Below, one piece after another: positions 9,725 to 56,105 of a stretch of 64,000 nucleotides of DNA. The stretch spans positions 39,990,001-40,054,000 of the forward strand of contig NC_135890.1 in the NCBI RefSeq assembly GCF_964194155.1, in the 5' to 3' direction. How positions within the stretch are numbered: the first letter of the stretch is position 1; each line of letters opens with the position of its first letter. The notes beneath the pieces are model-generated. The model was given only the letters and a program-made list of their open reading frames with translations. It was not told where the DNA came from and made no database searches. This DNA is from Cetorhinus maximus. Its lineage: Eukaryota. The translations under genes were made by a program, and so were the position numbers.

Positions 9725-10138
9725 CTAGTTCTCAGGAGCGAGCTGCAGCCTCATTCCCCGCATGGTGCCCCAGTCGCCAGTGATTGGCTGTCGGTGCCGC
9801 GAGTCCCCGATCCACCTATGATTGGCTGCATGCGGCGCGAGCCTTCGCTGTATCCCCTCAGCGATTGGCTGTCGGTGCCGTGATTGCCTCCCCCCCCCCC
9901 CCCCCCACCCCGAGCCCCAATGATTGGCTGTCGATGCCGCGAGACCCCCAGATCCACCTGTGATCGGCCCCCCCGCCCCCACTGTGCCCACCCTCCCACC
10001 CGACTCTTGTGTTTGGCTGTTTGTGCCACGAGGTTCTTCTGAACGGTTAACCCCTTTCGTGGCGGAATTCCCCTCAGTTTATCCTTGCGTGCGTCAAACA
10101 GACCAGCAGGCCGCGCGCGAGCGTTACTGAATGCCAAC
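9725..10138. promoter_or_regulatory. Bidirectional CpG-island promoter shared by DUS4L and COG5, with tandem CCAAT (NF-Y) boxes
   Basis: The only strongly CpG-rich stretch in the window, between two divergent start codons about 620 bp apart. ATTGG at 9783, 9821, 9864 and 9923, and a GC-box-like CCCCGCCCCC near 9971. Confidence 0.85.
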
Positions 10139-10196
10139 ATGGAAGGAAGCGGAGGTTCTCCGGTGCGAGACTCGGTGAAGGAACTGCTTCTGGATG
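10139..10196 (+). CDS. COG5: COG5 exon 1 (conserved oligomeric Golgi complex subunit 5)
   Basis: Strong Kozak GCCAACATGG. Encodes MEGSGGSPVRDSVKELLLD, resembling human MEGGGGS...TVRELLQD. G|GTAAG donor, phase 1. Confidence 0.9.
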
Positions 10197-10551
10197 GTAA
10201 GGGTGCTCACCTACAGTTATCAAGACAGGCTGTTGCGGGGGTGGGGAATATATTCCAACACGTCAACCTTTCAAAGAGTAAGCCTTCGGTTACTCGATTT
10301 TCGACTGCCTTTTCCCAGTGGGTTCAGTGTTTTTGATTGCACTTATTCTTGTGACCATACTTTGGTGCATACATTATGAATTATTAAAGAATAGGGGAGA
10401 GGAAGAGTGTAAATAAGTAGAATCGATTTTGCATAAATCGAGTAGAATTGGACCTTACTGGAGTTTGTTGTAGACGACCCCCTCATAATGAAAAGTTTTG
10501 CATCGAATCTACATTCACAATGTCACTATTAACAAGACATGTTAAAGCTAG

Positions 10552-10654
10552 AACAAAATAAAAACAGAATTACCTGGAAAAACTCAGCAAGTCTGGCAGC
10601 ATCGGCGGAGAAGAAATCAGTCAACGTTTCGAGCCCTCATGGCCCTTCAGCAGA
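10552..10654 (-). mobile_element. Young 103 bp Penelope-like terminal fragment with hammerhead-like motif
   Basis: Flanked by the 15 bp direct repeat ACATGTTAAAGCTAG (10537-10551, 10655-10669). Identical over the shared length to the arms at 31540-31735. Confidence 0.88.
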
Positions 10655-13492
10655 ACATGTTAAAGCTAGGCCTTCACTGGTTCAATTAACCACTACTGAG
10701 TTGACCGTTCTGCTTGGCTGAATTATCCCAGAAGCCGTTACCATTCACGACACATGGGAAAACTTTCAAAAACAGTAATAAATAATAAGACCCACCAGAT
10801 CACCTAATTAAACTGTTGAAATTTTGTCCAAACCTAGCCTTCTGCAAATCGAGTGCTGATTTGGTCAGTGCATAATATCATCAGTACTTTTGTCATCATT
10901 TTAAGCTAATCGGTGTACACAGCTAAAATTATTTTTGTGATCAACATTTAATGAAGTTAGATAATTCTGCTAACATCACTAAATTTACTATAGTATTGGC
11001 CATTAATATTAGAAATGCATGCAAATGTTTTTCCGTATATAGGCCTATGCTTTTATTTGGAGATTAGGTGCTGGAATTTCCAACCATTGCTGATCAAGGT
11101 CTGTGTTGGGAGAGGTGGATCATGGGAGTTGTTGTGTGCTTCTGCCCAGCACACATCAAAACAACCTATATCATGAGAGCCGAGTACAAATTTTCAACAA
11201 GTTGCATTTCTGAACAGGACGAAGAAAATCACATTTTAAAATTTTATATAATTTAGACTTAAAATTTTTGTTTTGTAATTTAACAGTGTTTGCAATTAGT
11301 TTTTTTATGCCCCTGAGGGAAACCAATGTTTGAGCCACCGGTGAAGGGAGATTTATTTGACTCTAGCTGCAATAGGAGCATTAATACCAATCAGGCCCAG
11401 CCCATGGATAGTGACTACTTACTAACATTTTGGAGTTTGACAGTGATGAATTCCTTTTAGTGCTAGACCAATGAAAGCTTCAAGAATTACAAATCCAGTG
11501 TAAGAAGGAAACATTTTCTAATTATGTGCTGGGGAAAGAATGAAGGATTTGGGGAAAAATAGCGAGGAAAAATCAAATGTAGCAATTCCCTTTTGCATTC
11601 CCTGCACCTCTCCCCACAACCCACCATATCCTTTGTCCCACTATTAACGGCGCTGCCTTTAGCTTTCTAGATCCTTAGCACTGCAAATCTGTCTTTAACC
11701 TCTCTGGCTCTCCTCGCAGCTCTCCTTTAAGCTGCCTCTTAAAATCTACCTCTCTGACCAAGCTTCACTTGTCCTAATACCTCCTTGCTGGCACTGTCAA
11801 TTTTTGTCTAATTATTCTCTTATGAACTGCTTTGAGATGTTTTACTATGTTAAAGGTGTTATATAAATGCAAGTTGTTCCATCTTAAGACTTCAAATCCA
11901 GCGTCAGAAGTACAGCAACAAAGAAAGTAACTGTGAAGGAAAGGTTTTAGGGAAGGCAGAGCAAACAATGTTTCTTACTTAACAGGATGTTTAAAATATT
12001 GTAAAATAGCATTACAAAAAAATTTGAGGCCATTGTCAGTACCTGTCAGGAATATTTTTACTGAGTGCTGCAATATTACGAATTTACTATCATTTTAGGC
12101 TGCTGCTGCATTAAAAATCTGAAACCTCCCACTTGTGAGCATTGTTATAGGAGATCAACTGGTTATCTATCATTACACAATGGTGAATTTCTATGCACCA
12201 TGCCATCCAGGAAAAAAATCCATCTTCAACGAGTTACATATCAGCAGATTCAACATTTAACATGTCCGGCGTAATAATCAAAAAAACCAGCAGTGCTAAG
12301 TCACAACGTAAACTTTGGAATTCAAATTTAACTCTTAAATCATGCGAAGATGTTAGTTGCACTTCAGTGCTGTGTTTGTGAAATGCAAGGTAAGTATCAA
12401 AACCCTGTGAGTAATGCAGAAAAAAGGTGCTGATCCTTGCTGTGAGGAAAGGCTGGAAAAACTCTAAACCTTCAACTTAATAAACTTAATAATATCGGAT
12501 TTCAATGACGTACAAAAACTAGGTGGAAAAGCTTTAAGCTGGAACATTATTTCAAGTCAAACCACTACTGTACTACAATGGGAATGAAAATACAAACTGT
12601 AAAAATTCAGGCGTACTGTAACATCAGGAAGCATTTCTTCAGGCAAATGGTGATTGATATTGGAAACATAAATTTCAAAATGTTAATTTGTGTTTTTTAC
12701 ACTGTTGTGTGGGGAGAAAACATGGCACTTGCTGTTTGTCATTTAGTCAAATGATTAATGAAGAAATAAACTTGTAATATCCAATGTTAATTTCAGTACT
12801 AATAAATTGTATATCTTTCATATCTAAAGCTTGTAAGTTAAATGTAAAGAACAGTGTTTTTCACTGGCTACTAGAGTAATAATTCTGTATTTCGTAGTAC
12901 AAGTGAAAGCAATTGAATATGGATTAAGGAAGATGCCCAGTCAAATTGGTGACAATGATGCTCCTGGATTGCCATTTTATTTGAGATGAAAGAATAATGC
13001 TTATTTGCATTGAAGTTTGATTTTTTTTTAAATGTATCTGATCAGTATTGGTTTGATATGGTACTTGTCTTGTGTCTGTCATCTCCTAATATTTGTTCTG
13101 CACAATTTTCCTCACTTCTTGCTCCACTATTTTATGTGGCTGTTGGTTCTCTTATAGATTTTACAGATTAAGCTGTATATATGAAGTATCAAATTGACAT
13201 AGGATTAGTGTAGGATATCAACTGTACAATGAAAAACGATATTTAAAAAAAATCACGACTGCACAAGAACAGGACCGCGTGTACTCTATCAAATGTTCCC
13301 TTGTATTTAGAATTTCATTGATTTAATAATTGTTCATAGGAGTGGTATGGAAGAAATTCATAGGTAAAATACTTAGTCCAAATTAATATTCGTTTACTTG
13401 TTTTTCTTCACATGTCACATGTCACATTTTATATTTGTGACTTAATTTGTTATTTCAGTGAAATATTTACAAGTACACTTAACTTTTTTCAG

Positions 13493-19808: not shown

Positions 19809-20481
19809 GTATACCATATTAGTATACACCTGCACATAAGAGATGTACATTGATCATAAACCTTAGGGGCTTTTAGATTTCCCCTCCCTCCCAGTTAACA
19901 AAATTCCGACGACAATCCGTTAGTTACAAAGCTGCAAGTTTCAGGGCATATCCTCAGAATGGATAAGAAACTGGTTGAATGAGAACCCTGAGTCATGTTG
20001 GGTGGGTGGAAATACTGAGTGGGCTCTGTGTTTGGCTCACTATTGTTTGCAGCTTGCATTCAAGAACAGCAACTTATGTTTATATAATGCCTTTAATATA
20101 ATAAACTGAGCGTAAATGACCTGGATTCTGAAACTCAACAGAAAGGGCTAATTTTGCTCATTTTACTATATTAGGAAAGAGAGTGGAAATGGAGGAGGTG
20201 GTGAAAAAAAAAACTGAATAAGTTGGGTAAAATATGTGTGGCCAGTACAATGGCAGAAGAAACAAACATACTGTATGAGTGGCCTTGAAATACGTAAACA
20301 TGAAACTGAAAAAGACCTTGCTAGACTCTCTGATAAAGCTATACAACTAAATTTCTCAAAAGGAGAAATGAATGCCACTTTCAGTATAAATAACATTCAG
20401 ATGATCGTATATTGATCATGGTGGTGCAGTTGAGTTGCAGGTTATAGAGTACATGATACCAAGAAGTGGAAGGTCACATAT

Positions 20482-21390
20482 AAGCAGAAAATGCTAGAAA
20501 TACTCAGCTGGTCAGGCATCATCTGTGGAGAGCGAAACAGAGTTAATGTTTCAGGCTAATAATCTTCCATCAGAACTGGGAAAAGTTAGAACTGTCTTAA
20601 GTTGGTGAAAGGGATGAGGGTGGGAAAAAAACAAAAGGGAAAGTCCCTGATAGGAAAGAAGACAAGAGACATTAAATGACAAAAGAGTTAGTGAAGCAGA
20701 GTCAAAGGGAGTGGTAATCCGACATAAAAAAACAAAAGATGTGTGTAGAGGAGGTGTGAATGTCAGAATAACGAACAGATGCCGTTCAAAAGCCAAACAA
20801 CAAGAGTAAGACCAAAACATACAAAGAAAAGGAAACCAATGGGGGCAGAGGTTAGAATCTGAAATCGTTGAATTTAGTACTGAGTCTGGAAGGCTGTAAA
20901 GTACTTAATCAAACGATGAGATGCTATTCCTTGAGCTTGTATTGAGCTTCATTGAATCAGTAGGCCGAGAACAGAGGGGTTAGCATGAGATCAAAGTAGA
21001 CAATTAAAATGCGAGGCTGTTGGAAACTTGGGATTGTCTGTGGACTGAACGGAGGTGTTGTGCAAAGCAGTCACCCAATTTGTTTGGTCTCTCCAACAAG
21101 AAGACCGTGTTGTGAGCAGCAAATACAGTATGCTAAATTGAAAGAAGTCCATGTAAATCTTGATATGTTTAACCTGGAAGTATGTTTGGGCAATTGTGGA
21201 GTGGACCAAGGTATCATGGGGAATAGTCACTTCAGAATGCTAAAAGGAGAGTGGAGGGGAAGATATGTTTGGTGATGGCATCACACTGGAGGTGGCAGAA
21301 ATGGCAGAGGATGATCCATTGAATGTGGAAGTTGGTGGGTTGAAAACTGAGGACAATTGGAATCCTGTCGTGCTTTTGGGAAAGAGAGGG
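20482..21390 (-). mobile_element. Penelope-like element remnant (GIY-YIG endonuclease region and terminal repeat)
   Basis: Minus strand carries a decayed YC.CS..GLL..GETK...GD.FA.HLRSV pattern. The terminus contains CCAGTT-CTGATGG...GAAAC-ATT-AACTCTG. Confidence 0.8.
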
Positions 21391-22800
21391 AGGGCTTACC
21401 TTTTTGGGCTCTAATTAACTCTCCTCCAGTGCTGTAACCACTCTATTATTCTATAATAGGGCTACTTCTAAACAAATAATAGACTAAATTGATAATGCAT
21501 TTTCCATTATAACGACCTTGTAGATAAGAAGTCTTTTTGCAGATTTACTATAATTTAAGTAAAGATTATTTATAATGCAATATGGAGCAACCCACATACC
21601 CCTACAAAGCATTATTGTTTGGATCTTATTGCCAAAGACGGAGTAAAGTTTGGGAGGTGCATGCTGGATGCGGGCATTTCTGTTGAGTCCAAAGAATCTG
21701 AACTGACAGTTCCACCCAAGTGTTTCTTGCACTGCAGAGAAAGGGAAGGGTTATAAGAGCGATTTAATCAGCATCAAAACTTTTTAAAGTGGCATAGTCT
21801 CTGTGACTTTTCTTCAGTTTCCTTTTGGCTGCACTCATTCCAGTGATGTGATCATTTGTGCTCCTGGAAGCTCATAAAAATTGAGCTTTAATAAAGTTGA
21901 TAAAATTACAAAAATGCTGACAACTCAAAATAAGCAACCTACAACTTAAAATCAGACTCGAATATAGGTCATTGACCAATATGTTCAATTACTTTTTGAC
22001 TCACAGGTTCAAACATGTTATACCTTAAACTGCAGGTATATTCAATATTCCCACGAAAGTGCAGTTTTATGCAGTCTTGCATTTAGAAATTTCTAAAGAA
22101 CAACGTGATCATGGATGGTGTTATTTACTTTCAACATTTTTGGTGCATTTTCCATCACTTTGGAATATACTGCAGTTCTGCATTTTGAAGTCAGAAATGA
22201 TGGTAATTGAAGTGTGCTAGATTGCAGATAAGTCCACCAACAACTCAATATTATTTGTGAAAAGAAACAAAGCAGTTTTTCAGGAATGTTTAGAACTGAT
22301 ATTCTAAGGCTATCCTTATGATGCCATCCAGCAATTCTTTGGTGAAGACATCAAATGTCAGCTGAGAACTTTCCTCACCCCTCTTTCAAGAGACAGCTCA
22401 GTGAGTCATATGCCCCTGGATGGAGTTGGAGCACACAGCTCCGATATGTGCAAAATTTTGCTATGTGCACTTGTAGTTTCCTGATTATGAAATTATGGAA
22501 TACATTGTCAAAATTCTTTTGTGAAAGCAATATGTGCATTTTTATTTTTTGCACCCTAAAACATTCTACAATCTTAAACTCACAGCTTTTCTTATGTGTT
22601 CCTTCTGAGAGCAAAATCCAGCCTGTTCATTTTTGATTACTCTGCACCCTTCCAAAGCACTCAATTTGCGTACCACAACAATATTCAGATGCATGAATTT
22701 CAGCAAGGTTTTTTAGTTGCTGGCAGGCCAGTATTTGTTGTCCATCCTTAATTGCCCTTGAGAAGGTGCTGGTGGTGGTGAACAATCTTCTTGAACAGCT

Positions 22801-28610: not shown

Positions 28611-31539
28611 TCACAAGAAATAGGAGCTGGAGCAGGCCATGTGGCAATTGAGCATGCTCCACCATTCAATATGATCATGGCTGATCTTGGGCTTAGCTTC
28701 ATTTTTCTGCCCGCTCCCCATATTTCTTAATTCCCTGAGAGACCAAAAACTTGTCTATCCCAGCCTTAAATGTATTCAATGATTGAGTTTCTGGCTATGC
28801 CAACATTTATTGCACATCCCTCTTTTGCCCTTGAGAAGGTGGTGGTGAGCCGCTGCCTTGAGTTGCTGCTGTCCATGTGGTGCAGGTACACCCACATGAT
28901 GGGAGGGCATACAGACTTTAAATGAGTTTAAGCTTGTGAAGGGGTGTGGTGGAAAGGAGGCTGGTTAGAAGTCAGATTAAAACTTGAGGTAATGATGGCA
29001 TGAATTCAGGTTTTAATTGGAGACAGAAACCAAAAAAGGAGGTCTCCTTTTTTGACAGCATTAAGCAAGAAAATATTTATACTGTTTTTCTCTCCTGATC
29101 ATTATCAAATCTTGTCAGATTGTTATATTCCCTCTGAGCATCAAGATAAGGGGAAAAAGACGATCATGAACCATGGCTGTTTCATGACAAAAATCATAGA
29201 ATGATGTAGCACAGAAAGAGGCATTTGGCACGCTCTTGAGCAGCAATCCAGTTAGTTCCACTCATAGCCCTACAGAAGCTTTCCCCTTCAAGTATTTATC
29301 CAAATTCATTTCGAAAGTTATCATTAAATCTGCAGTGCAGTACATTCCAGATCATCATAACTTACTGCATAAAGAGAAAAAAATGTTTCCTTATGTGGCC
29401 TCAGGTTCTTTACCAGTCATCATGACAAAATATACACGGGTTGGTTGGTGTGCCTTGTAACCTGTGCAACACCCAGATCCACGGGCAAAGGAAAGGAAAT
29501 ACTTAAAATGTGTCCGTGTTACTTTATAATCACTATTTATTGCTGACTACAAATTTTTGCTTTAATTTACTTTTCATTCCAATCTGATTATTGTATTGAC
29601 TCCCCAGTGTCTCCTGCTGACGCCTTTTGAATTAAATAAATATCAACCATACCACCAGTAAATAGATGTAATTGCATATTTTGACTCTCATAAAATTTGA
29701 TCTGTTCTACTGATCAGAGAGTGAAGCAGTAGGTTAGCATACTTGCTGATTATTTCTAGATTGAAATGTTTAATTTATTTAGTTGATACATACCTGAAAT
29801 CTGGTTGAACTACAAAATGTCTGTATTGAACATTTTTTTCCATTTGCCCTTTCTACATCAAAATAATCTGAGGTGAAATCTAAGGTAGAATTTCAGTGTA
29901 ACTAACATTGTGTGAAATTTTAATATAGCAGCAATACTTGTAAGCTAGCATTTATATAGCCTCTTTTAATATACAGTAATTATCCAAATATCTCCAAAGT
30001 TTTCACAACACCGTGCGTTGAACCTTTTTAAGAAGGCAAATGTGGCAGTTGTTCTGTGCTAGTCATAACCTTATCAGATGCGTTGCTGGCCTTGTTTTTA
30101 GTGGCATTGATTTGAGGGAGGAATGTCAGGTAAGACATTTGGAGAACTACCAGCTCTTCTTTGAGCCATGGGATCTTTAATGTTTACGTTACCTGATATT
30201 GCTTTAATGTTTCATTTGAAGGATGGATTCTCCAACACTGCAGTATTCCTTCAACCTATATGCAGTTAACTGCATGTATTGGAATTGAACTCAAAGCCTT
30301 CTGACCAGGAGCATTTGACCCAAGCTCAGACCAGCTTGATACGTTCCTTGGTCTTAAATCGGTTCTGCAGTTGTTTGCCAAATGTGGCTTGTAAAAGGAA
30401 CAACTATAGAATGAATCTTTAAGTCTTCAGCTCTCAAAGTTTATATGTTATGTTTGATCAAGGGGTGTTTTTTAATTTATGATGTTCAAAATGTGCTTGA
30501 AAGGGGCAAATATTGTATTGGAATGTGTTTACATACCTGTTGGATTTGGCTCAGTCGAGGCTGAGTCTGGCTACTGACTCAGAAGCTTGTGATCAAGCTC
30601 TACTTACGTAATCTAAACTAACTTCACTATACTATTGAAGAGGTGCTACATTGCTGGAAGTGTCATTTTTTGGATGAGTTGTTAAACGGAGGCCTCACCT
30701 ATCAGTTCTGGTGGACGTCAAAGATTCCAGAGCAATATTTACAGAAGAACAAATATTTCTGCCAATCTCCTAGCCAACATTCCTGTCTCAAAAGCACCAC
30801 CAAAACATACACTCTGGCTGTTGATCTTACTTTTTTTATGTTGACAATTGGTTGCAACGTTTATTACAAAACAGTGTCCAAAGTTCATAAGTAAATAATT
30901 GGCTATGAAGCACTTTGGAACATCCTCGGGACACAATAGGCGCTGTATAAATGAAAAGTTCCTTCTTTACCTTTCACTGTGTTGAATAGGGAAGATTTTC
31001 TTATTTTATTCTTTCATGGAATGTGGGTGTCACTGGCAAGGCCAGCATTTGTTGCCCCTCCCTAATTGCCCTTGAGCTGAGTGGCTTGATAGGCCAACTT
31101 TGCAGACAGTTAAGAGCCAACCACATTACTGTGGATCTAGAGTCACATGTAGGCCAGACCAGGTAAGGATGGCAGATTTCCTTCCCTAAAGAACATTAAT
31201 GAACCAGATGGCTTTTTACAACAATCAGTGATAGTTTCATGGTTTCATAATTTCACCATTACTGAGCCTAGCTTTCAATTCCAGATTTTATGAATTGAAT
31301 TTAAATTCCACCAGCTGCCATGGCGGGATTTGAACTCCTTACCCCTAAAGCATTAGCCTCGGCCTATGGATTACTAGTCTAGTAACATTACAGCTACGCC
31401 ACTGGTTCCCACTAATTGGTGAAGTTATAATTGAACCTTGGACTATTGGATACAATTTTGCAGTTAAACAGTAATATTTCAAATTAGGAATAGATTTGCC
31501 CTCTGGGAAAATTATTTGAGTTGACTTTGATTTGGGCAT

Positions 31540-31785
31540 AATAAAAACAGAATTACCTGGAAAAACTCAGCAAGTCTGGCAGCATCGGCGGAGAAGAAAT
31601 CAGTCAACGTTTCGAGCCCTCATGGCCCTTCAGCAGAACTGCTGAAGGGCCATGAGGGCTCGAAACGTTGACTGATTTCTTCTCCGCCGATGCTGCCAGA
31701 CTTGCTGAGTTTTTCCAGGTAATTCTGTTTTTATTTTGTTTTGGATTTCCAGCATCCGCAGTAGCTTTTAGCTTTTTGTTTTTAT
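31540..31785. mobile_element. Young Penelope-like inverted insertion forming a perfect palindrome
   Basis: 97 bp arms (31540-31636, 31639-31735) around an AA spacer. 15 bp TSD CTTTGATTTGGGCAT at 31525-31539 and 31786-31800. Confidence 0.93.
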
Positions 31786-32559
31786 CTTTGATTTGGGCAT
31801 GGCTGGCAAATCACTTAATTAGTTAATTCTTATAAGATTAGAATAGGAACTTGTACAGGTAACATGAAAATTATGACCTTTCATGCAATTCATTAAAAAT
31901 AACTGCACTAATTCTGATGACTCTGTTGCTGGATGAAACTTGGTATTTGAATCGCTTATGCCTGAGCTTTCCTTCCCATACAGAACAATCTTGTTAATTC
32001 AGTTACAGGGTCAGATGTGGCTTAGATTTCCAAATCACGGCTCAGATGGCAGAATTATTGCCTCGATATTCTATCAAATCCCTTCTTGCCTCCTCAGGTG
32101 AACGTATAAGATCCCAGGTGCTGTTTTTGAAGTAGAGCAGAGGAGATATCCCTGGTGTCCTAGCGAATAGTTATTCCTCAACCAACATCACAAAACAGAT
32201 GATCTTATCATTGTCACGTTGCTGTTTGTGGGAGCTAACTGTCTGCAATTGGTTGCCATGCTTTGTTCATTACAACTTTAAAAAGTACTTCATTGGCTGT
32301 AAACCATTTTGGATCATGCTATGGTTGTGGAAGGCATGATATGTCTTAAGTTGCGAGCAATACTTCTCCACTTTGTGATTCAAAGACTGGTATTTTATGG
32401 TGCCAGATATATGTTGTGCTGGAGCCATAACTGTAACCAATGTGGATGTGATTTCAAAGTTCTCATGGTATATGTAAATTTTTCTACATTAGGGATTGCA
32501 TCTTGCTTGTGTATTTGTATGGCAACCTAAATTTCGTCAATTTACTTAGATGAACCATA

Positions 32560-33495
32560 TAAATATAAACAGAAAATGCTGGAAATACTCAGCAAATCTG
32601 GCACCTTTTGTGGAGAGAGAAACAGTTAATATTTCAGATCTGTGACCATTGATCAGAAGTGAGTATAGTTGGAAATGTAATCAGTTTTGAGCAGGTTGGG
32701 GGGGTGGGGACAGTGCAAGTTGGGAAGAACAACAAAAGAGAAAGTCTGTGAATGAATGGAGACCAGGAGGGATTAAATTACAAAATTAATTTTGGAGCAA
32801 GGCCAAAGAGAGTAGTAATGGGACAAATAAAGAAACAAAATATGTGCCCAAAGGAGCTGTGAATGGCATGATAGCTGCCATATGAACGCAAAGTAAAGAC
32901 ATTGAGAAAGAAATAAGAGAACCAAACCAGCAAAAAAAGTGGAATCAAAATGTGGAATCAAAAATCAAAATTTGTTGAACTCAGTGTTGAGTCCAGAAGG
33001 CTGTAAAGTGCACAGCCGAAAGATGAAGTTCTCTTCCTCAACCTTGCATTGAGCTTCATTGGAACATTGTAGCAGGCCAAAGATAGAAAGGCCCAAGTAG
33101 GTACAAGTTGGAGAATTAAAATGACAGGCGATTAAAAGCTTGGGGTGGTATAGCTTGTGGACTGAATGGAAGCGATCAGCAATGCGGTCTCTCAGACTGG
33201 ATTTGGTCTCCCCATGTTGAGGAGACTGCATCATGAGCAGCAAATTCAGTATATACTAAATTGAAATAAGTATAAGCAAATTGCTGTTTCACTTGGAAGG
33301 AGTGTTTGGGGCCTTGGATGGTGTGAATGGAGTAGGTAAAAGAAGTTCCGTCTCCTGCGCTTGCATGGAAAGGTGCCGTTGGAAAGGGGTGTTGGAGCGC
33401 CTAAGGAGTGGACCACGGTGTCACAGAAGGCATGGTGGAGGTGGCGGAAATGGCAGAGGGTGACCAGTTGGATGTGGAGGTGGGTGGGGCCCTCA
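32560..33495 (-). mobile_element. Penelope-like element remnant
   Basis: ORF GETKSSLRDRIADRFHSV...ACHFNS...KVEEENFIFRLCTLQPSGLNTEF (GIY-YIG C-terminal half) and the AAAACAGAAAATGCTGGAAATACTCAGC terminus. Confidence 0.85.
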
Positions 33496-33992: not shown

Positions 33993-35231
33993 TTATCTTT
34001 TTCTTTTGGGATCTAGCCAGGAGTTGTGGATTACTGGATTATTAGGGTTGGGATCAGCCTCAGTAATTGAGACCACTTTCTTTTTCATTTTATTTTTGAG
34101 GACTTTTTGGAACTTTTGCCTTGCAAATGCATATAGTAGAGGATGGAATATAGTTGTTCCATAAGCCATGATTAAAAAGCACAGTCTTAATTTTACTATT
34201 ACATCATCTAGACCTTTATATAATATAACAGTATTTAAAACTGATATAGGTGTCCAGCAAAAAAGAAAAGTTGAAATAATTAAAAGTGACATTCGGAAAA
34301 CCCTTTTTTGTCGTTCCCGCCTTTCACGATGGCGCTTAACAGCTCTTCTTAGAGCGATTATTACTGAGACTGAAGTTCTTACTCTTAGTATTACATTGTG
34401 TCCTCTGTTACTTTCTGATTGATCAGTATTCTCATGTTGTATGACTAGTGGTATGGTCTTTTTTCCCTTTGTTTTTTTCTGCCTAGTGGAAAATCGTGAG
34501 CCTATTTTGATATTCAGCGCTTGAAGTATTTTTCTGTAGGTTATCAACATTACGATAGCAGTGAAAATAAAGATGGGAATCTGCATTAGAAGGTGGTAAT
34601 ATATTCCCAGTTCATTATGGTATTCATTTACACCAATGCACAAGAGTGTATTATTTTGCCAGGTGTTTTCATTGCTTTGTAGACGAAAAAAGCTGACTTC
34701 AATGAAAGGGATTGTAAATGCGGAAAAGGACACAATCCACACTGATGTTAGTAATGTTATTGCTCTTCCCATGGTCAAAATCCGATTGGCTGGCTTAACC
34801 GAAATGTCATAACGATCCAGAGTGATTGCAAGAACATTTACTGAAGTTGCTACACTAGCAAAAGAAATACAGGCTTCATGGAAATTGCAAATCAAAGCTG
34901 TTTTGCTTTCTAGCGAAATAAGAGTGACAATTATTGTAAGAGGAATGCATCCAACACATATAACAACATCCAGTATGTGCAAATTCATAGTGATAATATT
35001 ACTGACTGAATTAATCAGGTTTGACTTCATACAGTAAAGTACCAATACTGTTAAGTTGCTGCTGAGTCCTAACACAATTTCTAGTAAGAAAAATCCAGTA
35101 AGGGATGCCTGAAAACTTGCTGGATAGGGTAGAGTCCAATATGCATTGCCGTTGATATTATAAATCTCATCTCGAACTGTCAAATTGATTTCAGAATGCA
35201 TGGTGACTTGTAAAATAAGATGAAGACACAT
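33993..35231 (-). CDS. GPR22: G protein-coupled receptor 22 (class A orphan GPCR), nested antisense in COG5 intron 6
   Basis: 412 aa ORF with seven hydrophobic segments, DRY, CWTP and HPLLY motifs, and the GPR22-typical RRAVKRHRERRERQKRVFRMS. Splice acceptor TACATTTTCAG at 35262-35260, 28 nt before the ATG. Confidence 0.96.
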   Translation of the reverse strand: MCLHLILQVTMHSEINLTVRDEIYNINGNAYWTLPYPASFQASLTGFFLLEIVLGLSSNLTVLVLYCMKSNLINSVSNIITMNLHILDVVICVGCIPLTIIVTLISLESKTALICNFHEACISFASVATSVNVLAITLDRYDISVKPANRILTMGRAITLLTSVWIVSFSAFTIPFIEVSFFRLQSNENTWQNNTLLCIGVNEYHNELGIYYHLLMQIPIFIFTAIVMLITYRKILQALNIKIGSRFSTRQKKTKGKKTIPLVIQHENTDQSESNRGHNVILRVRTSVSVIIALRRAVKRHRERRERQKRVFRMSLLIISTFLFCWTPISVLNTVILYKGLDDVIVKLRLCFLIMAYGTTIFHPLLYAFARQKFQKVLKNKMKKKVVSITEADPNPNNPVIHNSWLDPKRKR

Positions 35232-35317
35232 TCTTTGTAGATGATGATTTTGATCAATCCTGAAAATGTAAACAAGAGTATTTAAGTTCCACTGTTTCGC
35301 TTTAAAAAAAGAGAGCC

Positions 35318-35976
35318 ATTCTAGCGAAGCATTTTATCTTGCACTCATCAGGACAGATTTACAAGAATGCCAAATCTCAAAGGGAACAACAATTTATACT
35401 GCATGAGAAGAGGGTGCTGATTGGTTGGCAAGTGGGCTCGGATTGGTGGAGGCATTGCTGTGGAGAATGCACCAGGGACCAGTTAACTGCTAAGCCTTTG
35501 TTTCAGTTCAAACCAGGTAGATCAACTCTGATTAGTTAATGTATTGCCATGAGGAATGATCCAGGGAATTGCTGTCCTCCAAGCTTTTGTTTAGTTGAAA
35601 AAAGCGCAATGCATGGACATGCTCTTTTTGTTTGCAAAGATGTTTGAATATATGTGGCTTCTAGCATGTGTAAGTGAGCCACGCTCTGAGTCAGACTGAT
35701 AATCTTAAATTGGTTGTCAGTGTAATTCTTAGCACAACTAGGATTGGTTAGCAAGCGTTGTCCAAATGCAGAATCACATCTAATGTTATACACTATATTC
35801 TGAGTTTTGCAAGCATGGGCTAGTTGAGCGCTGTCAGTACTTTGCCTGTTGCGAACAGCCAAAGATACGATCCACCAGTGGTTGCACACATAACTGGCAT
35901 CACACCAGCACTGAAATTCATATACCACATTACTCATTTGTGTGGTAAAGAGAACAGCTTTTTGGTTTGACAGCAT
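35318..35976 (-). mobile_element. Penelope-like remnant of a different lineage (GIY-YIG) with a decayed hammerhead motif
   Basis: ORF SNVVYEFQCWCDASYV...SAFGQRLLTNPSC...FKII...LHMLEATYI. Terminal TGTC-CTGATGA-GTGCAAGAT-AAAA-TGCTTC on the minus strand. Confidence 0.75.
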
Positions 35977-37124
35977 TGAATTTATTCAAAGCTGAGTTGG
36001 ATAGATTTTTGACAGACATGGGAGTCAAGGCTTATGGGGGGCAAAAAGGAAAGCGGAGTGGAGACCATAATTAGATCAGCCATGATCTTATTGAATGGCA
36101 GGGCAGGCTCAAAGGGCCGAATGACCTACTCCTGCTCCTACATCATGGGTCCTATATTGAAATATTTTAACTGTTTTCAATGAAAAATGGCCCTCTAGGC
36201 AACTCTTTTGATATCTAAGTGGTCAAATGCACCACATTCATGGAAACCTGCTGGTTCCTAGGTTAGCTGATTTTAGCTGATCTCTGCAGTGGTGACCCCA
36301 TTTAGCCTGTGTCACTGGGGTGAGAAGAAGAACAATTGTCAGGGATTCTGTTCTTTATTGCTATCCAGTTGCAACTACAGGAACTAAATTTGTATGTATA
36401 AACAACTGTTAGAAAAATAGTATGTATTTTAGAATTGTGGTAGTAATGTTTAAAGGTGTCATGTTGCTGCCCTCTTCTGGCCATATTTGTATAGCATCAT
36501 ATAAGTTGGAAACTCTTTCGAGTTATCAACAGTCACAGATTGCAACTCTTTCGAGTACAATCACAGTTCTTGGTTTCCGGGAGTGGGACATGAACCCACA
36601 ACCCTCTGATTCAAAGGCGAGGGTGCTATGAACTGAGCCACAGCTGACACCTCTATCATATAAGTTGGAAGATGCACATTAATCATGAATATAAAGAATG
36701 CTGCAATGATGGTGGAAGAATTGGAAAAATAAATCAACATTACAATTTGCATGTTTTAACTCATTTTTTGCACCATAAAATATCACTAAAACTTAACATT
36801 TGAATTGGGCACAGGTATATATCAACATAGTTAATCTAAGCAAATAAGCAAAAAATGCTGTTTAGCTTGGTATGGACAATAGTTTCGAACAAATGCTCAG
36901 AGGTTGTACATATGTTTACATGGTTTATATATGAATGAATAATATGTGTGCACTGTCATCTATTTTTAGTTTTCTCAATTAAAACCCAGGGCTCTAACCC
37001 AGCCTCCCCCTGTTGCATTTTTAGTAACCATGATGTATGTATACACAAGTTAATATAGATAGAAGCGGAAGGATTTGGAGTTGATGGCTTGGGGAAAATC
37101 AAAACACAATGTGTTTACTGAGTG

Positions 37125-42127: not shown

Positions 42128-43796
42128 CTGAAAATGTCTAGTGAAAGTAGCATGCTGCAGCCTTCTGCCTCTGGAGATTACATTTGGATTTAGCCCGTTT
42201 GGAGTGGTAAGGCAGCATGAAGTAATTGTGGGCGGTATTCATCGAATGACAGGTTGACTCATTGCCTCTCTTTACTGCAGAGAGTTGCAGTGTATGCATT
42301 TGTTTTGATTTGCTAACCATAATGGATTTGTCCAATTCGTTGTGCAAAGGGGTGTGTTTTTTCTCTCCAAGTTCAATAAACATTTGATTTGGTAACTGAG
42401 AAATCGTTTAAAAAAACAAATACATTTGGGGTCCAATTGACCTAGAGAGAAAAATATTAGCTGCATTGATGGCAAGTCTTTCAAAAATAAATCCGTAACT
42501 AAAATTTTATTGACTTCCTCTTGAAATTAAATTCTTTTTAAGCTAATTAAATATTGTGACCAAGTGTAGCTCACATTCCTTTCACAGTTACATCTTTACA
42601 ACAAAATTATATATCTTGCCTGGGAGATGGTAATTATTTTGCTGATGGCCATTTCATCAATAATTTAGTCTAGTTGCCTAGTTACACTGAAAATATTTTG
42701 TACATTTGTCACATCTCATGATAGGAGGTCTGCGTACACTGTATTGGGTAACTGAAGGTAATTATTTCTTCTTGACAATGACCAGGTGAAACCATGAGTA
42801 AAAATTTTTTGTCTGATAGTATGAGATGAAAATGTTTATGATTGGTAACACTCAAGTCACTGATCTTAAATTTGAATATCATATGGTATGTATAAAGCAC
42901 AATAAACATAGAAAAAAAATTACTTCTAAAGGAGTTTTAAGATAAATGAGAGAAAAATGATTCTAGTTATTCTGTGAAAGATTAAGATTAATTACTTTTT
43001 AGATAAATTTGAGTTGTATTTCCAGAAATTAGCCTGCCATTTTTAAGAAAGTGCTGTAAAATTGCTCATTAAACTGTTCAGGTTTAAACGCAGCAATTGA
43101 TTAATTGATTTATATTTGACCTGTACTGAAGCAGTATTACGTCAAACTTTGTTGCCCTGCAAAAATTAGATGGTCATGTTTAATAGAATAGCTCTTAAAA
43201 GGATGAAGCCTGGACCCCTGGAGACATTATTAGCCATGAATGGCTTACAGACTGGTTGATGGACTGGACTGACTCAGGGCAGATGAAATTCATTGCAGAA
43301 AAGTGTTGCAGTTATATATCTTTTACAAAGTATTTACAGTAAAGAAAGAGGCCCAACAGGTCGATGCCGGTGTTAATTCTCCACATGAACCACCTCCCAC
43401 CTCTTTACATCTAACCCCATCAACAAATCCTTATATTCCTTTCTCCCTTATGTTTATCTACCTGCCCCTTAGTCACATCCTTCTTGAGGGTAAGGAAGTT
43501 TCTCTTGAATTTCCTATTGGATATGTTAGTGATTATCTCATATATATGACCAAAGCTCTGTCCCCCACAAGTGGAAACATCTTTAAGTCTAGTCTTTCAA
43601 ACCCTTTCATAACTTTAAAGACCTCTATCAGGTCAGCCCTCTTCCTCTTTCTAAGTGTAAAGAGCCTCAGTCTGTTCAGTATTTCCTGATAAGGAGGCAC
43701 ATTTCAGCAATGCCATTTTATTTGGTGCTTGAGCCATAATATAAGTATATATAAATTTAAAAAATATAAGGGGATGGATAAACTTAATTCATGTGA

Positions 43797-44320
43797 AGTA
43801 AAAACAGAAAATTCTGGAAACACTCAACAGGTTGGTTAGCATCTGTCGGGAGAGAAACGGTGTTAATGTTTCAGGTCAATGAGTTTTCATCAGAGCTCAA
43901 AGATCTTGGAGAAGAACAGCTTTTAAACAATTACAGAGCAAAGGAAAAGGGGTGGAGGGAAAGCACAAAGGAGAATGATCTGTGATACGGTGAGCGCAGG
44001 AGTGATTAAATGGTAAAATGATGATGGTGCAAAATCCCATTATGGGATATTACTGTAGAAACAAAAGATAGTCCAGAATAAATGTACAGCAGAATAACAG
44101 AGGTGAAGGAAACTGACGAATCTGGCAATGTGGATAGGGTTGTCATGCCCTGTGAATGTGGAGGAAGAAAGGCAGCTACCAACAGGGCATGCCTAACCCA
44201 AGCAACAACCCACACATCTTCCATTCCGAATGTCTCTGGTCAGACATACTCCATTATCAGCATCTGTTGTCTGGGAGAAAGTGGGAGTGGTTGTTCAGAT
44301 TTAAAGCTATTAAACTCAAT
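43797..44320 (-). mobile_element. Penelope-like terminal remnant
   Basis: TAAAAACAGAAAATTCTGGAAACACTCAACAGG terminus; minus-strand CTGATGA...GAAAC-ATT-AAC. Confidence 0.7.
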
Positions 44321-45745
44321 ATTAAGGCAAATACGAATGATGATGTAGAATTGATCCGGAATAGAGCAACATGCACTGGAGCCGTTAGCAGAGTGTGTAA
44401 AAGATAGCAAATGATATGCTTGGACTGAAATTATTGATTACGTGAGAAAATGTTTCAGACATACTGAAAACTGAATTAATTAGAAATAAATCAACAGTGA
44501 ATTGAGGATCAAGACAGTTTGTTGCTGACATCACAAACTACAGGTTACACTTGAAATAGTAACCATATGCTATTTAACCGTGGAACATTGCCTTGCACAG
44601 AGCATAAGTCATTATATATTGAAAATAGCCACAATTCAGTTTAAGATGTGTTTTGAGAATTTTTAAGAGAATAGAAAGGTGGAGCTAGTCTTGGAAGGAA
44701 TTCCTCAAGCCTTTGCAGCCAATGGTATGGCAGTGAGAGGAGCTAGGGAGGATGCTTAAAATGCTAGAATCATAGGATTGCAGCATTTGGGGTGGGGTGG
44801 GTCGGGGGCATATAGTGAGAGGTGGGTGCTGAGACTGGCGAGATAGGCCAAGATGGGTTTAAAGATGAGGCTGAAGATTTTAAACTTGGGGTACTGAGGT
44901 ATGAGGATTAGGGTAAATGGGTATGTGGGTTTGGTGTGTGCAGTAGAACCTTTAACACGTTGGAGTTTAGGGAGGGTGGAGAAAGGGAGGTCATGTAGGA
45001 GGCCATTAGAGTAGTCGGATCTGGAGGTGACTAAGGCAAGAATAAGGGTTTCGGCATTGGAGGGACTGAGATGGAAAATGTGGAGGTGGATGTAAGCAGT
45101 GCTGGAGATAATATAGGTCTGAAGTCCAATTTGGGGCTGAACACAACATTGAACAGTTCAACTTAGCCTGAAAGACTAGATGGGAAGGGTTAAAATAGTG
45201 GTAGCTAAGCGGTTTGTGGTGCATTTTTTTCTCAGTAACTGAAATGTATAATGTCAAAAGTAAGGTTTAAAAAAAAAATATTTCACAATAATTGATTAGA
45301 TTTATCAATTGAACTGTTTGCTACTGACATCTCAAACTGCAGACTACACTTGACTTGAAGATGGTAGCCTCTTCTCAAAATGTTGGGTCTGAATTGAATA
45401 TTTTTGTCCAAAATGCTCACTGTTACCTGGGATAGGCTGTGGGGAAGCAACTAAGCTAAACAAATGATAAAATGCCTCTCTGAGCATTTAGCAACTTTTA
45501 TTTTAGTTGTTTTGGAAAATTATTTGAAGAAAACCTTAAGGAAAAATTAGAGAGCTTAATTTGGGTAAAAGTTATATTGTGTTTTTTTTTAAATGAAGTA
45601 CACATTTGTGTGGATATGGAAGAAAAAAATACAGACAACTGATTGTGCATCTGTTGCAGCTTTAGCTGGTGTTTGAATTAAAAATATTTCATAAATTTCA
45701 GAAAATATTCAGCTGCAAACAACACACACAACCAGGGTCTTCCCT

Positions 45746-45878
45746 CAGCTCTGAAGAAGAGTCATATGGACTCAAAACATTAACTCTGTTTCTCCACAGA
45801 TGCTGCCTGACCTCCTGAGTTTCTCCAGCGTTTTCTGTTTTTATTTGAGTTCCAGCATCTGTAGTATTTTGCTTTTAT
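45746..45878 (+). mobile_element. Short older Penelope-like terminal fragment starting at the hammerhead motif
   Basis: CAGCT-CTGAAGA-A-GAGTC-ATATG-GACTC-AAAAC-ATT-AACTCTG...GCTTTTAT, with near-TSD TCTTCCCTCA / TCTTCCTCA. Confidence 0.75.
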
Positions 45879-48020: not shown

Positions 48021-49529
48021 AATTCAACCAGATGTAAACATTCAGCGTGAACATCTGCATCAACAGAAAGATGGAGTAATCATCATGATAGGTTTTAGTG
48101 AAAGATACTGTAGTTCCAGTTATACTGGTAGTTTTGAGAGAGATTTTTTAAAAAGTCTTCATTCACTTGAATTTATAAAAATTGCAGTTGCAATAATGGT
48201 TACAAAAGATACAGGGTACATTGTGCATACTTTACAGCTAGATAATCAACCTGCAGATGACCTTCCCGCTTTTTAAGAAAAAGGGAAAGCAATTTTAAAA
48301 GGTTTAAAAGGAGATTTAACAGAGGCTTTTAACATTATGAAAAATTTCGATAGTCAATAAGGAAAAGTTATTTCCTCCCATTTGGGGAGTAAGCGATGAG
48401 AAATTTAAGAGCGAGGCAATAGGTTGGGAGACATTTTTTACACAGAGGATTGTTCTACCTTGGAATGTTTTGATACAGGAAATGGTTGAGGCAGAAAATT
48501 GCTTTTAGAGAAATAGGAGAAACATTTAAAACCAAGAAAATAGGAAGCTATGGGGATGTCACTAAACAGTGGGAACAGTTTTGTATTTTTCTAGAAAAGG
48601 ATGGGTCCAAATGCGATGGACTGAATGGCTTTTTGTTGTGTTGAAAATATCTATTGTACAGGGAAATCATTTCCACAAACAGCCAGGTTAGATATTAAGT
48701 TATCAGTAACGATAGCATTGGTTATTAGCTACATTTTTCCACCTAGTTGCAGTCAAGTTAATTTTGGAAATGTTTTCCTACCTGCCATGATCTGTTACCA
48801 TTTTATAATTGGCATCACAGTTTACCATCCTTACTCTGTTGAACTCAACAATGTAAATAAATACTTTATTATGAAAGCGAGCTTTGACTTGAAAAAAGGC
48901 AGCGGGCTGTTAATTCTTTGCTTATTTTACCAGCCTCATTAAACACTTGACATATTTATGGTAAGTGGTTCTGTAAGGTGAAACTAAAATGTTCAGCCAC
49001 ATCTGTGTTAATAAAAGCATTACTCAAATCTATTAATCTTTTGTGATTTGATGTTTTAGCTCATCAGCACTATCTTTGTGTAAAGAGAAGTAATCCTTAA
49101 TGCCTAATTCATTAATGCTAGCAACTGGTAGTTGGATGTGAAATCTAAATGAGTGGTAAGATTCTTGTTTAACACTCCTTCCATATTGTGTAGGCTCCTG
49201 ACCTCGGTTTAAACATTTTGGCTAGAAACAAGGTACGATCCCTGAATGATAAGAGGACAGGAGTTAAATCAGAAGAGAGTTAAATTGTGCAAAAGCTCAT
49301 AAGATGGTTATTTCCCATCCAGTTGGTTCAGATGGATGCATGTGCATGGTACAAATTTTAAAGGGATGTTTATGCCAGTTAAATAAGTCACTAGCCCTCG
49401 GAAATAACACCGATGCATGAAAAAGGGACATATTCTTTTGTGCACATGCTTTTCACCATTACTCATGATCCAATATTTCAGACCAATAAGCTGCTTTGTC
49501 ATCAGAAGACCTAGCATAAAAATGATGCA

Positions 49530-50700
49530 AATAGAAATAGAAAATGCTGGTAATACTCAGCAGGTCAGGCAGCATTTGTGTGGAGAGAAACAGAGCTAAT
49601 GTTTCAGATTGGCCTTTCATTGGAACTGGGAGAAGATAAAGATCTAATAGGTTTTGAGCAGGGGGTGGCTGGGATGAAGATGAAAGAAAGGCCTGTGGTA
49701 GCATGGAAGACAGGGGAGATTGAATGACAGAAGCGTTAGTCTTACAGTGCCAAAGGGAATGTGATAGGGCAGGAAAAGAAACAAAAGATGTGCTTAAAGC
49801 AGGTATGCTGCTGTCTGAAAGCAAACAGAGAAAAACTGAAACATGCAAAGGAAACAAAATGGTGGGGACAGAGTTTACAGTCTGAAATTTGTTGAACTCA
49901 GTGTTGAGCCTGGAAGGCTATAAAATGCCTGATCAAAAATGAGGTGATGTTCCTCAAGCTTACGTTGTGCTTCACTGGAACAATGCACAGGCCAAGGGCA
50001 GAGATGTCAGTGTAAAAGCCAAGTGAAGAATTAAATGATATGCCACCAGAAGCTTGGGGGTTATGCTTGCGGGCTGAATGAAGATGTCCCCCAAAGGGTT
50101 CACCTATCCTGCATTTGGTTTCCTTAATGTAGAGGATACCACATTGTGAATAGCGCTTACAGTAGACTAAATTGAAAGAAGTTCTCCTAAATTGCTGCCT
50201 CACCTGGAAAGAGTGTTTGGGGCCTTGGATGCTGAGGAGAGAGATTATAAAAGGGAGGTGTTACATTTCTTATGTTTGCATGGAAAGGTGCCGTGGGATG
50301 GAGACAGGATGTTGGGGGCGATTGAGGAGTAAACATGGTATCAGGGAGAGAATAGTCCCTTCGGAATGCTGAAAGGGGAGGGGAAGATGTGCTTGATAGT
50401 GGCATCACGCTGGGGGTGGCAGAAATGGCAGAAAATGATCCATTGAATACGGAGGCTGGTGGGATGAAAGGTGAGAACAAGGGGATCCTATCTTGGTTCT
50501 GGGAGAGAGGGGAAAGGATGAGAGCAGAAATGCAGAAAACGTGGTGGGGGGAATCCTCGATTGAGGAAAAAAGAAGACATCTCAAGTGCTGCTGTAGAAG
50601 GTTGCATAATCAAAATAGATGCGATGGAGACGGAGGAACTGGAAGAATGGAATGTGGTCCTTACAGGGTTTAGGATGTAAGGAAGTGTAGTCGAGTTGGC
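49530..50700 (-). mobile_element. Penelope-like element remnant
   Basis: ORF SFNLVYCKRYSQCGILYIKETKCRIGEPFGGHLHS (GIY-YIG) and QDRIPLF...LSAFRRDYSL (linker), with the typical terminus. Confidence 0.85.
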
Positions 50701-54120: not shown

Positions 54121-55117
54121 AGTATATCAGCTTAAATAATGTGCTTTCCTAGATTGGGGCTTGAACCCATAACCTTCTAACTATGAGACAGAAGTGATAC
54201 CTGATGATCCAAGTAAATGCTAGAGGTAACAAGATATGTTCCTATAGAGAACATAAATTGAGGTATATGGAAAGAAGGTGGTGATTAGGTTTGGTTCCAT
54301 TCAATCAACACAAATTGGCCAAATACATTTTCTCTGTTCATTAAAGTTCATGAATGAAGTTCTTGTGACACATTTTCCCTTCCAGATCTGGCACAGTTGT
54401 GCTCCTGATAGTAAATATATGTATTGAATTGCTGCAACCAACCACAATAGTTTCCTCATTTACTTGTATTGAAGTAATCGTATGGTAGAATTACAGCTTG
54501 ATATGCAGGAGATGATAGCAAATAGTAGGTGTGAAGACATGTAAAATAAAAGCAAAATCCTGCAGGTGCTGGAAATCTGAAATAGAAACAGAAAATGCTG
54601 GAAAAATTCAGCAAGTCTTGCAGCATCTGTGGAGAGAGAGGATCTAGAACGAGGAGTTACTGTTTAAAAATAAGGGGTCGTTCATTTAAGACAGAGATGA
54701 GGAGAAATATTTTCTCTAAGTGTTGAGTCTTTGGAACTCTCTTCCTCAAAAAACAGTGGAAGCAGAGTCTTTGAGTATTTTTAAGGCAGAGCTAGATAGA
54801 TTCTTGATTAACAAGAGGATGAAAGGTTATCGGGGGTAGGCAGGAATGTGAGGTTGAGAACAAAGAACAAAGAAAAGTACAGCACAGGAACAGGCCCTTA
54901 GGCCCTCCAAGCCTGCACCGATCATATTGCCTGTCAAACTAAAACATTTTGTACTTCCGGGGTCCAAAATATTTTAGTTTGACAGGCAATATGAGGTTAC
55001 AGTCAGATCAGCCATGGCCTTATTGAATGGTGGAGCAGGCTCAAGTGGCCTGCTCTGAATTCGTATGTTAACGTATTGAAGAGCCAGTTTTGAAGATGAG
55101 TCATATTGGACTCAAAA

Positions 55118-55400
55118 ATAAAAACAAAAAGCTACTGCGGATGCTGGAACAAAGACCACCACCTTCAACACCTCTTTGACCCTTTTGTCTCTGACATCTT
55201 TTGATTATCTGCTCACACCACACCCTCAATGTGTCTCTTCCCCCCCACCCACCTTAAACCAATTTATATTTCTCCCTTGTTGAAACTATGCTTCAGTTCT
55301 GCCGAAGAGCCATGAGGGCTCGAAACGTTGACTGATTTCTTCTCCGCCGATGCTGCCAGACTTGCTGAGTTTTTCCAGGTAATTCTGTTTTTATTTTGTT
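55118..55400 (+). mobile_element. Young Penelope-like insertion with inverted 32 bp terminal segment
   Basis: 12 bp TSD TTGGACTCAAAA (55106-55117, 55401-55412). Only two substitutions relative to the 31.6 kb right arm across 55299-55400. Confidence 0.88.
55293..55335 (+). ncRNA. Minimal type I hammerhead ribozyme-like motif (variant C6 core)
   Basis: Stem I UCAGUU/GACUGA, core CUGCCGA+A, stem II GAGCC/GGCUC, then GAAA, palindromic AACGUU in place of stem III, and predicted cleavage triplet GUU ending at 55329. Activity untested. Confidence 0.65.
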
Positions 55401-56105
55401 TTGGACTCAAAACGCTAACTCTGTTTCTCTCTCTACAGATGGTGCCAGATCTGCTGGGTTTTTCCATCTTTTTCTTTTTTTGTTCACAAAAACATGTGGT
55501 TGGTATACTTTTACAAAAGAATAATTCGAGGAAAAATTCTAGGTGTCTAAAATGTGATTAAGCAAGTTTTGCGAGTGATTTAATTGAACTCCCATTGATT
55601 AACAAAGCAGAGTAAAATTCACATTATCTAGATATGTTGCCATTCTACTCAGTGGCTATTTTGGAAGGTTAAATGTCATTTCATCAGAGACTTTTAGCTT
55701 TTATAATTTACAGTGCAGTGTGGAAATGACCTTTACATCAAACGGAAAAACCGTGTATTCTTCAAGAACTTGAACTAAGTGTAGCAGGCTAATGACTTCT
55801 AATCAGTATGAAATTACTTCAGATCTTGATAATGCTCCTTCATTGTGTCCTGTTTCATATGTAAGAGGAAAAATCATACTGAGCCAGTGAATCAGCTGTA
55901 ACATTGCATTGTTGTGAGGATAATTGCAGCAAATGCTATAATTGCATGTATTGTATAAAAGGGCTATGTTAACCTTGTCAGTGGACAAGATTTACCATAC
56001 TTTAAAAGGAACTTTTGAAAAACAGTGACAGGATTCTAATTCAATCCAAATTAAATAATGTTTTTAAGAACATTACAGCCTCTGAGGACTAAATATGTAC
56101 ATATA

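Follow-up and report, generated by a model that had tools for sequence, protein, structure and literature searches.

Four of the nine insertions of a Penelope-like element (PLE) family in the 64-kb window (the whole stretch of DNA analyzed) have 5' ends that fall within 6 nt at stem I of the element's hammerhead. This clustering exceeds the expectation from smooth truncation at a suggestive level, and a genome-wide peak of 5' ends at stem I is probably real. Tentatively, the short inserts may have arisen as run-off cDNAs: an uncleaved RNA would have its 5' end at stem I and would be copied from the two known internal start sites.

The formation of pLTRs and the role of the hammerhead in PLEs are described as unsettled (PMC8557442; PMC11167929). 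Both questions become approachable from the distribution of 5' ends in a family such as this one, which is young, high in copy number, and flanked by exact target duplications. Should the stem-I peak be real, it shows where the template's 5' end lies, and the ribozyme fold has a role besides cleavage; if it is not, the short copies are ordinary PLE debris. If the template starts at stem I, solo and head-to-head pLTRs would constitute a fossil record of the RNA 5' end in any PLE-rich genome. Such a start would also help explain pLTR formation and the persistence of weak or A6C hammerheads in an actively copying family.

Classification of the Element

Judged from sequence, the insert at 10.6 kb and its relatives are terminal-repeat pieces of an ordinary endonuclease-bearing PLE, which is a known kind of element. 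The initial annotation had called these elements Penelope-like, and their pLTR anatomy and target duplications agree. Two further features are those of PLEs: a minimal hammerhead in the pLTR (by descriptor scan and fold, with A6C off the core consensus), and an inverted, 5'-truncated arm with an optional tail of 30-40 nt. Three old long copies run into a decayed GIY-YIG frame. The frame at 49898-50257 had a protein atlas score of 0.95 (180 of 256 features) with eukaryotic clusters in which 11-18% of members carry PF01541; it had no match in Pfam or NCBIfam, and a homolog search returned none among 86 candidates. We have moderate confidence that a GIY-YIG endonuclease lies upstream of the 3' pLTR in this related old copy, and the evidence is indirect for the young subfamily. 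Upstream of the same frame, in the 49.5 kb copy, two of the three Cys of a linker are readable, and the linker is decayed in the other copies. By its Cys linker (CX2-5CxxC between RT and EN), the family may be Neptune-like. No family copy in the window is long enough for the telomerase-like RT domain.

Copies of the Family in the Window

BLAST and profile searches identified 12 arms in nine insertions (Table 1). Eleven arms were detected by profile search at E < 1e-15, and the piece at 55084 was added to these.

Table 1. Coordinates of the PLE family copies and associated features in the window.
Feature	Position	Strand	Remarks
Left 15-bp target-site duplication of young solo copy	10537..10551	.	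Identical to 10655-10669
Young solo pLTR copy, 103 nt	10552..10654	-	From hammerhead stem I to RT start site 1; tail absent
Predicted minimal type I hammerhead in young solo copy	10618..10656	-	Descriptor scan and fold
Right 15-bp target-site duplication of young solo copy	10655..10669		
Old PLE 3' end	20473..21394	-	~815 nt past stem I
Young inverted arm	31540..31641	-	Tail absent; reaches first base of stem I
Young arm with tail	31639..31785	+	Starts at core position C3; overlaps left arm by 3 nt
Old PLE 3' end	32559..33488	-	~830 nt past stem I
Old PLE 3' end	43793..44098	-	~200 nt past stem I
Old solo copy with tail	45746..45877	+	Starts at about stem I; candidate 5' boundary
Old PLE 3' end	49526..50517	-	~890 nt past stem I, into decayed GIY-YIG frame (49898-50257)
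Old inverted arm with tail	54548..54640	-	Interrupted by LINE piece
5' part of old arm, from stem I	55083..55117	+	Split by young insertion; resumes 55413-55484
Inverted tail-only arm of long young copy	55118..55151	-	Reads
Long young copy	55157..55400	+	~140 nt of 3' UTR precede stem I (55294); hammerhead at 55294-55334; tail absent

Three insertions are young (10.6 kb, solo; 31.6 kb, head-to-head; and 55.1-55.4 kb). Young copies differ from one another at 0-3 of 98 positions, and the short and long young copies at 2 of 98. Old insertions of the short type comprise a solo copy at 45.7 kb and a pair at 54.5/55.08 kb, and they are ~76% alike to the young copies. The arms at 54548-54640 and 55084 are probably a single inverted event, interrupted both by a LINE piece and by the insertion of the young copy. 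The four old long insertions (20.5, 32.6, 43.8, and 49.5 kb) extend from ~200 to ~890 nt upstream of stem I.

Target duplications are 12-15 bp long, and there are two alternative 3' ends, with the tail present or absent. At 10.6 kb, the interval 10537-10669 runs from target duplication to target duplication and flanks a 103-nt minus-strand insert. At 31.6 kb, a single event accounts for the entire 246-nt insert, which is flanked by a 15-bp duplication (31525-31539 and 31786-31800). The long young copy has a 12-bp duplication (55106-55117 and 55401-55412) and shares its 3' UTR with the 20.5 kb copy (60.6% over 249 nt, E 1.4e-7). Its piece at 55118-55151 was identified as tail from an opposite-strand joint (55149/55398) in 4,514 reads. 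Both 3' ends were seen in reads with mixed flanks (at 55392, 3,511 reads with agreement 0.41; at 55118, 2,562 reads with agreement 0.40).

A 7-nt duplication in the tail (31762-31775) is a common variant, present in 2,261 of 6,625 reads at the corresponding place. The young element at 55.1-55.4 kb sits in stem II of the older copy's hammerhead (55106-55117), which fits homing of PLEs to pLTR DNA. A splice-donor-like motif (55376-55385), a short way upstream of both RT start sites, is confined to the young subfamily; were it used, only unspliced RNA would serve as template. The repeats of the window suggest a cartilaginous fish as host. Pattern scans for more copies gave none in viral contigs, none and then five in metagenomes, and four in prokaryote genomes. 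These nine metagenome and prokaryote loci were dropped as chance matches limited to a 19-26 nt seed.

Hammerhead of the Young Subfamily

The predicted minimal hammerhead of the young subfamily departs from the core consensus by A6C. In the young solo copy, the predicted hammerhead also has an extra A ahead of stem II, a palindromic helix III, and U at position 17, and truncation leaves three pairs of stem I. The 5' end of this insert lies 2-4 nt inside the 5' strand of stem I, where it has 2-nt microhomology with the duplication, and its 3' end is ~60-65 nt beyond the hammerhead. In the long young copy, stem I is at 55294-55298, the core at 55299-55305, and stem II at 55307-55321; cleavage is predicted after 55329, and the 3' strand of stem I follows at 55330-55334. 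The minimal-hammerhead descriptor had three matches in the window, every one a young arm. At -11 to -12 kcal/mol (z -0.9 to -1.5), the fold that is predicted is weak, and an Rfam search gave no hammerhead match and eight weak unrelated matches.

In the youngest, recently active subfamily, hammerhead position 6 is C and position 17 is U (55299-55305, 10647-10653, and 31630-31645). Reads with C at position 17 (4,289 of 10,031) represent a sister subfamily.

Position of the 5' Ends

The initial annotation listed five ends at the hammerhead. Its sequences and coordinates are correct, and the ends derive from four events, because the two arms at 31.6 kb share a 15-bp duplication, overlap by 3 nt, and thus belong to one event. 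Repeated termination at the hammerhead holds for the four insertions described above, but the other five were left out of that account and run further. These extend 140 to ~900 nt beyond stem I and include one young copy (55118-55400). None of the four old-subfamily long copies ends at stem I. The ends had been placed ~30-35 nt upstream of the predicted cleavage site, and we measured 31-36 nt, so self-cleavage is rejected as their origin, as the initial annotation had held.

The 5' boundaries at 45746 and 55084 are candidates, as the window holds no upstream reference for that subfamily. The 45746 copy has only an imperfect duplication candidate of 9-10 nt, and weak similarity to older copies extends to 45732-45739. 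Clustering was simulated under exponential truncation with means of 150, 265, and 500 nt (20,000 simulations, counting any 10-nt window). The simulated chance of four of nine ends in a 10-nt window was 2.5, 0.45, and 0.1%, respectively, and the same simulation scored on 12 arms gave 7.7, 1.8, and 0.3%. We found no report of PLE 5' ends peaking at stem I in a literature search that covered subscription journals thinly.

Read Depth at Stem I

Four runs were aligned to 55070-55500. The raw-read run, under the same species label, is a capture library from which 38,955 of 12.2 million records aligned. Its depth approximately doubles at stem I (2,048 at 55283, 2,961 at 55293, 5,893 at 55303, and 6,480 at 55310). 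Depth over 55160-55204 is ~7,400, and at 55214, 3,766 reads depart from the reference into a common alternative sequence. Together, these values point to a sister subfamily that has the upstream block, differs over 55215-55283, and rejoins the reference downstream. At least 5,253 depth units carry 55160-55204 but not 55215-55283, compared with a rise of 3,845 to 55303. The doubling is explained equally well by the sister subfamily rejoining the reference, and a peak is not required. A crude two-subfamily fit, which takes account of neither core depth nor mismatch losses in the hammerhead, was best at a peak of 0 (relative RMS 0.153, compared with 0.24 at a peak of 0.5).

Core depth of the young clade is ~15,800. 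Copies that reach 80 nt or further upstream make up at least 47% of the clade, and those that could begin at stem I make up at most about half. For the youngest subfamily, the share that begins in or just ahead of the hammerhead (55284-55330) has a lower bound of 23% and an upper bound of 59%. For the raw reads, the six loose ends listed include no stem-I position and the 15 joints listed include no head-to-head joint, each list being a minority of the total; PCR libraries probably under-sample palindromic fragments. A possible RNA run aligned as 75 contigs, a form that is uninformative on ends. Contig depths (X4 and X12), which swing ~2-fold between neighboring bins, were left out of the assessment of the peak. 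In the related species X12, depth is near nil on the young upstream region (8.6 at 55280-55294).

Origin of the Short Copies

In the explanation that we tentatively favor, the PLE protein would nick both DNA strands, and reverse transcription would start inside uncleaved RNA at the two edges of the tail, as in an anole PLE. An abundant template RNA would have its 5' end at the base of stem I, either because transcription starts there or because 5' trimming is halted at a protein-bound hammerhead. Priming within the first pLTR would yield a run-off cDNA of ~105-145 nt, akin to retroviral strong-stop DNA. This cDNA would join the target through 0-3 nt of microhomology in solo copies, and it would join a second cDNA from the other nick in head-to-head copies. 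Priming within the downstream pLTR would give long copies of variable truncation. A wider reading, which we hold with somewhat less confidence, is that the PLE template RNA begins at the hammerhead base and the ribozyme marks or protects the 5' end instead of producing it by cleavage, with short inserts flooding the genome.

Ends at stem I occur in both solo and inverted copies, which supports run-off, as does the clustering of four of nine ends. The ends are at the 5' side of the helix, which points to an RNA end and not to an RT block. In all three inverted inserts the tail is on exactly one arm, and two start sites on two strands predict such a layout. At the 31.6 kb junction, the tail-less arm contributes a 2-nt spacer, the opposite arm has the tail, and the register is unlike that of a cDNA hairpin; two cDNAs joined by 3-nt microhomology therefore fit this insert better than fold-back. 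Pure fold-back at 31.6 kb was rejected for its wrong register and for the tail on the other arm. The stem-I strand in the young copy, the 20.5 kb copy, and the 55.08 kb copy matches what we take to be the initiator consensus (YYANWYY). Matches to this motif are frequent (8 in 246 nt; 1.35% per base) and as such are weak evidence, and they are not general among published PLE hammerhead flanks. An uncut template is plausible given the A6C core, since activity with C at position 6 was reported as <0.1 per minute in a phage hammerhead (PMC3088659). In the D. virilis PLE, the start is reported to be upstream, with an intron that ends at helix I (PMC2377424; PMC4209133). That start site, ~120 nt upstream of helix I with the intron between, counts against run-off, as do the five insertions that pass stem I, the old long copies among them, and the step in read depth that needs no peak.

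It is rather unlikely that the ends have no special origin, with ordinary 5' truncation producing a chance cluster that was sharpened by the earlier selection of copies. The simulated probabilities for four of nine ends (0.001-0.025) argue against this, as do the two of three young events that end within 6 nt, both with exact 15-bp duplications, and the read-based upper bound of 59%. On the other side, the five omitted insertions pass stem I, two of the four boundaries are merely candidate ends, and the sister subfamily can absorb the entire step in read depth. In addition, the lower bound of 23% for young copies (55284-55330) is near the ~16% expected from a 265-nt mean.

A hot spot for junctions is also unlikely. 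Here the cDNAs would pass stem I, a small palindrome would set the point of self-priming or head-to-head annealing, and overhangs would be trimmed. The stem-I palindrome consists of three pairs around 2 nt (55294-55301), or six pairs around 5 nt given T at 55303, and the 31.6 kb junction falls exactly on it. Palindromes at pLTR 5' ends and at inverted junctions have been reported, and self-priming was proposed for them (PMC3846280). However, two of the four ends belong to solo copies in which the inverted partner is absent, and a 246-nt portion of the element contains 19 such mini-palindromes, some overlapping. At -0.3 to -0.9 kcal/mol the hairpin is weak, it adopts a register with a 5-nt loop, compared with the 2 nt observed, and the tail on the second arm cannot come from fold-back alone.

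The initial annotation also proposed a discrete non-autonomous mini-element (SINE- or retrozyme-like), which would have its own source gene and be mobilized by the PLE protein. This proposal found no support and is improbable, given the near-identical long copy at 55.1-55.4 kb. The three short young arms match one another at 97-98 of 98 nt. All three have T at 55303, where the long copy has C, and this shared T could reflect a short-only lineage; T is found in 2,189 of 5,893 reads. This clade signal comes from two short events and one long event, and the reads are unphased. Retrozymes are reported to derive from pLTRs (bioRxiv 10.64898/2026.07.22.740005). Against a mini-element, only two short young events are independent, the identical layout occurs in two subfamilies that are 76% alike, and at least 47% of the clade depth reaches further upstream. 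A T5 run (55370-55374, unit position 75) would stop Pol III ahead of both RT start sites. As we take the Pol III boxes to be defined, the A box is absent from the unit, and the one B-like match, with one mismatch, is too close to the 5' end. None of the four short events ends at the cleavage site, unlike a circle's product, and a tandem search of the window found no head-to-tail tandem of the family unit, so these loci do not have the arrangement of retrozymes.

Stalling of RT at the folded hammerhead, the other cause suggested earlier, is highly improbable. Its polarity is wrong for a monomer: traveling 3' to 5' along the RNA, RT reaches the 3' strand of stem I before the 5' strand, so a stall would place ends ~40 nt downstream of those observed. 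The 5' strand of stem I would be the final paired stretch reached by RT within a hammerhead dimer, with stem I formed between molecules, and dimers are expected from the palindromic helix III (PMC4209133). Stem I has just 5-6 pairs, however, the fold is weak, and five of the nine copies read through it. It is barely credible that stem I is a 3' splice site as in D. virilis and that short copies come from spliced RNA: an intron is reported to end at the 5' end of helix I (PMC4209133), and the 20.5 kb copy has a branch-like motif, a pyrimidine tract, and CAG at stem I, but exon-1 letters precede stem I in none of the four short events, the AG is also needed for stem I pairing, and introns are usually retained in PLE copies (PMC8557442).

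Neighboring Features

A second, unrelated PLE 3' end is located at 35290-35990 (minus strand), with a decayed endonuclease frame and a hammerhead-like core. It is present as a single copy in the window, extends far past its own hammerhead, and is presumably Poseidon-like. It lies just upstream of an intact single-exon rhodopsin-family GPCR frame (33993-35333, minus strand) of 446 aa from stop to stop (Pfam 7tm_1, E 1.4e-25), which we take to be GPR22-like. The LINE piece contains a near-perfect 30-bp inverted repeat (54919-54996) from a nested insertion, with sub-threshold matches to microRNA models. The sole tandem found consists of two 270-bp head-to-tail copies (847-1386) that are 98% alike and unrelated to the PLE family. 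A GC-rich region at 9768-10037 has five spaced CCAAT-box-like motifs and precedes a possible first coding exon near 10139. It looks like a bidirectional promoter and is ~400 nt from the young insert.

Comparison with Known Systems

Earlier descriptions cover pLTRs in solo and inverted form, the tail, and the palindromes located at junctions and at the 5' ends of pLTRs (PMC3846280; PMC8557442). The closest layout is that reported for Adineta Pen2/Pen3a (PMC3846280; scheme in PMC8557442), which share with the present family solo and head-to-head pLTR pieces, a tail on one arm, target duplications, and a junction palindrome. Here, by comparison, the favored end is hammerhead stem I, and the palindrome has only 3-6 pairs. 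The available portions of the Adineta account (PMC3846280) draw no tie between pLTR 5' ends and the ribozyme.

Minimal type I hammerheads of metazoan PLEs (PMC4209133) share with the present one a helix I of five pairs, an extra base between 9 and 10.1, G10.1-C11.1, and a palindromic, loopless helix III. They also occur mainly as single copies, with some opposite-strand pairs 100-700 bp apart. The young subfamily differs from these hammerheads, as described there, by C at position 6. One supplement file of that study (PMC4209133) has no shark, skate, or Callorhinchus entries.

In the anole PLE, both DNA strands are reported to be nicked and extended, and RT initiates at two internal sites that bound the tail (PMC11167929). 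Uncleaved RNA is described as the main template, and the product shortens with 5' truncation of the template (PMC11167929). This element, Poseidon from Anolis carolinensis studied in vitro, shares with the present family two RT start sites ~110-145 nt downstream of the hammerhead, use of both strands, and absence of ends at the cleavage site (PMC11167929). The Poseidon ORF is reported to begin in stem II (PMC11167929), whereas the corresponding ATG here reaches a stop within a few codons. As far as the available text goes, that study (PMC11167929) mapped 3' ends and not the 5' ends of copies, and the present family may be Neptune-like.

Retrozymes are reported as head-to-tail tandems whose processing at the cleavage site yields monomers and circles (PMC7229834; bioRxiv 10.64898/2026.07.22.740005). 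Non-LTR retrozymes, as described in these sources, resemble the present copies in being short, hammerhead-bearing, and related to pLTRs. In contrast, the arrangement here is solo or head-to-head, and the copies have their ends 31-36 nt away from the cleavage site.
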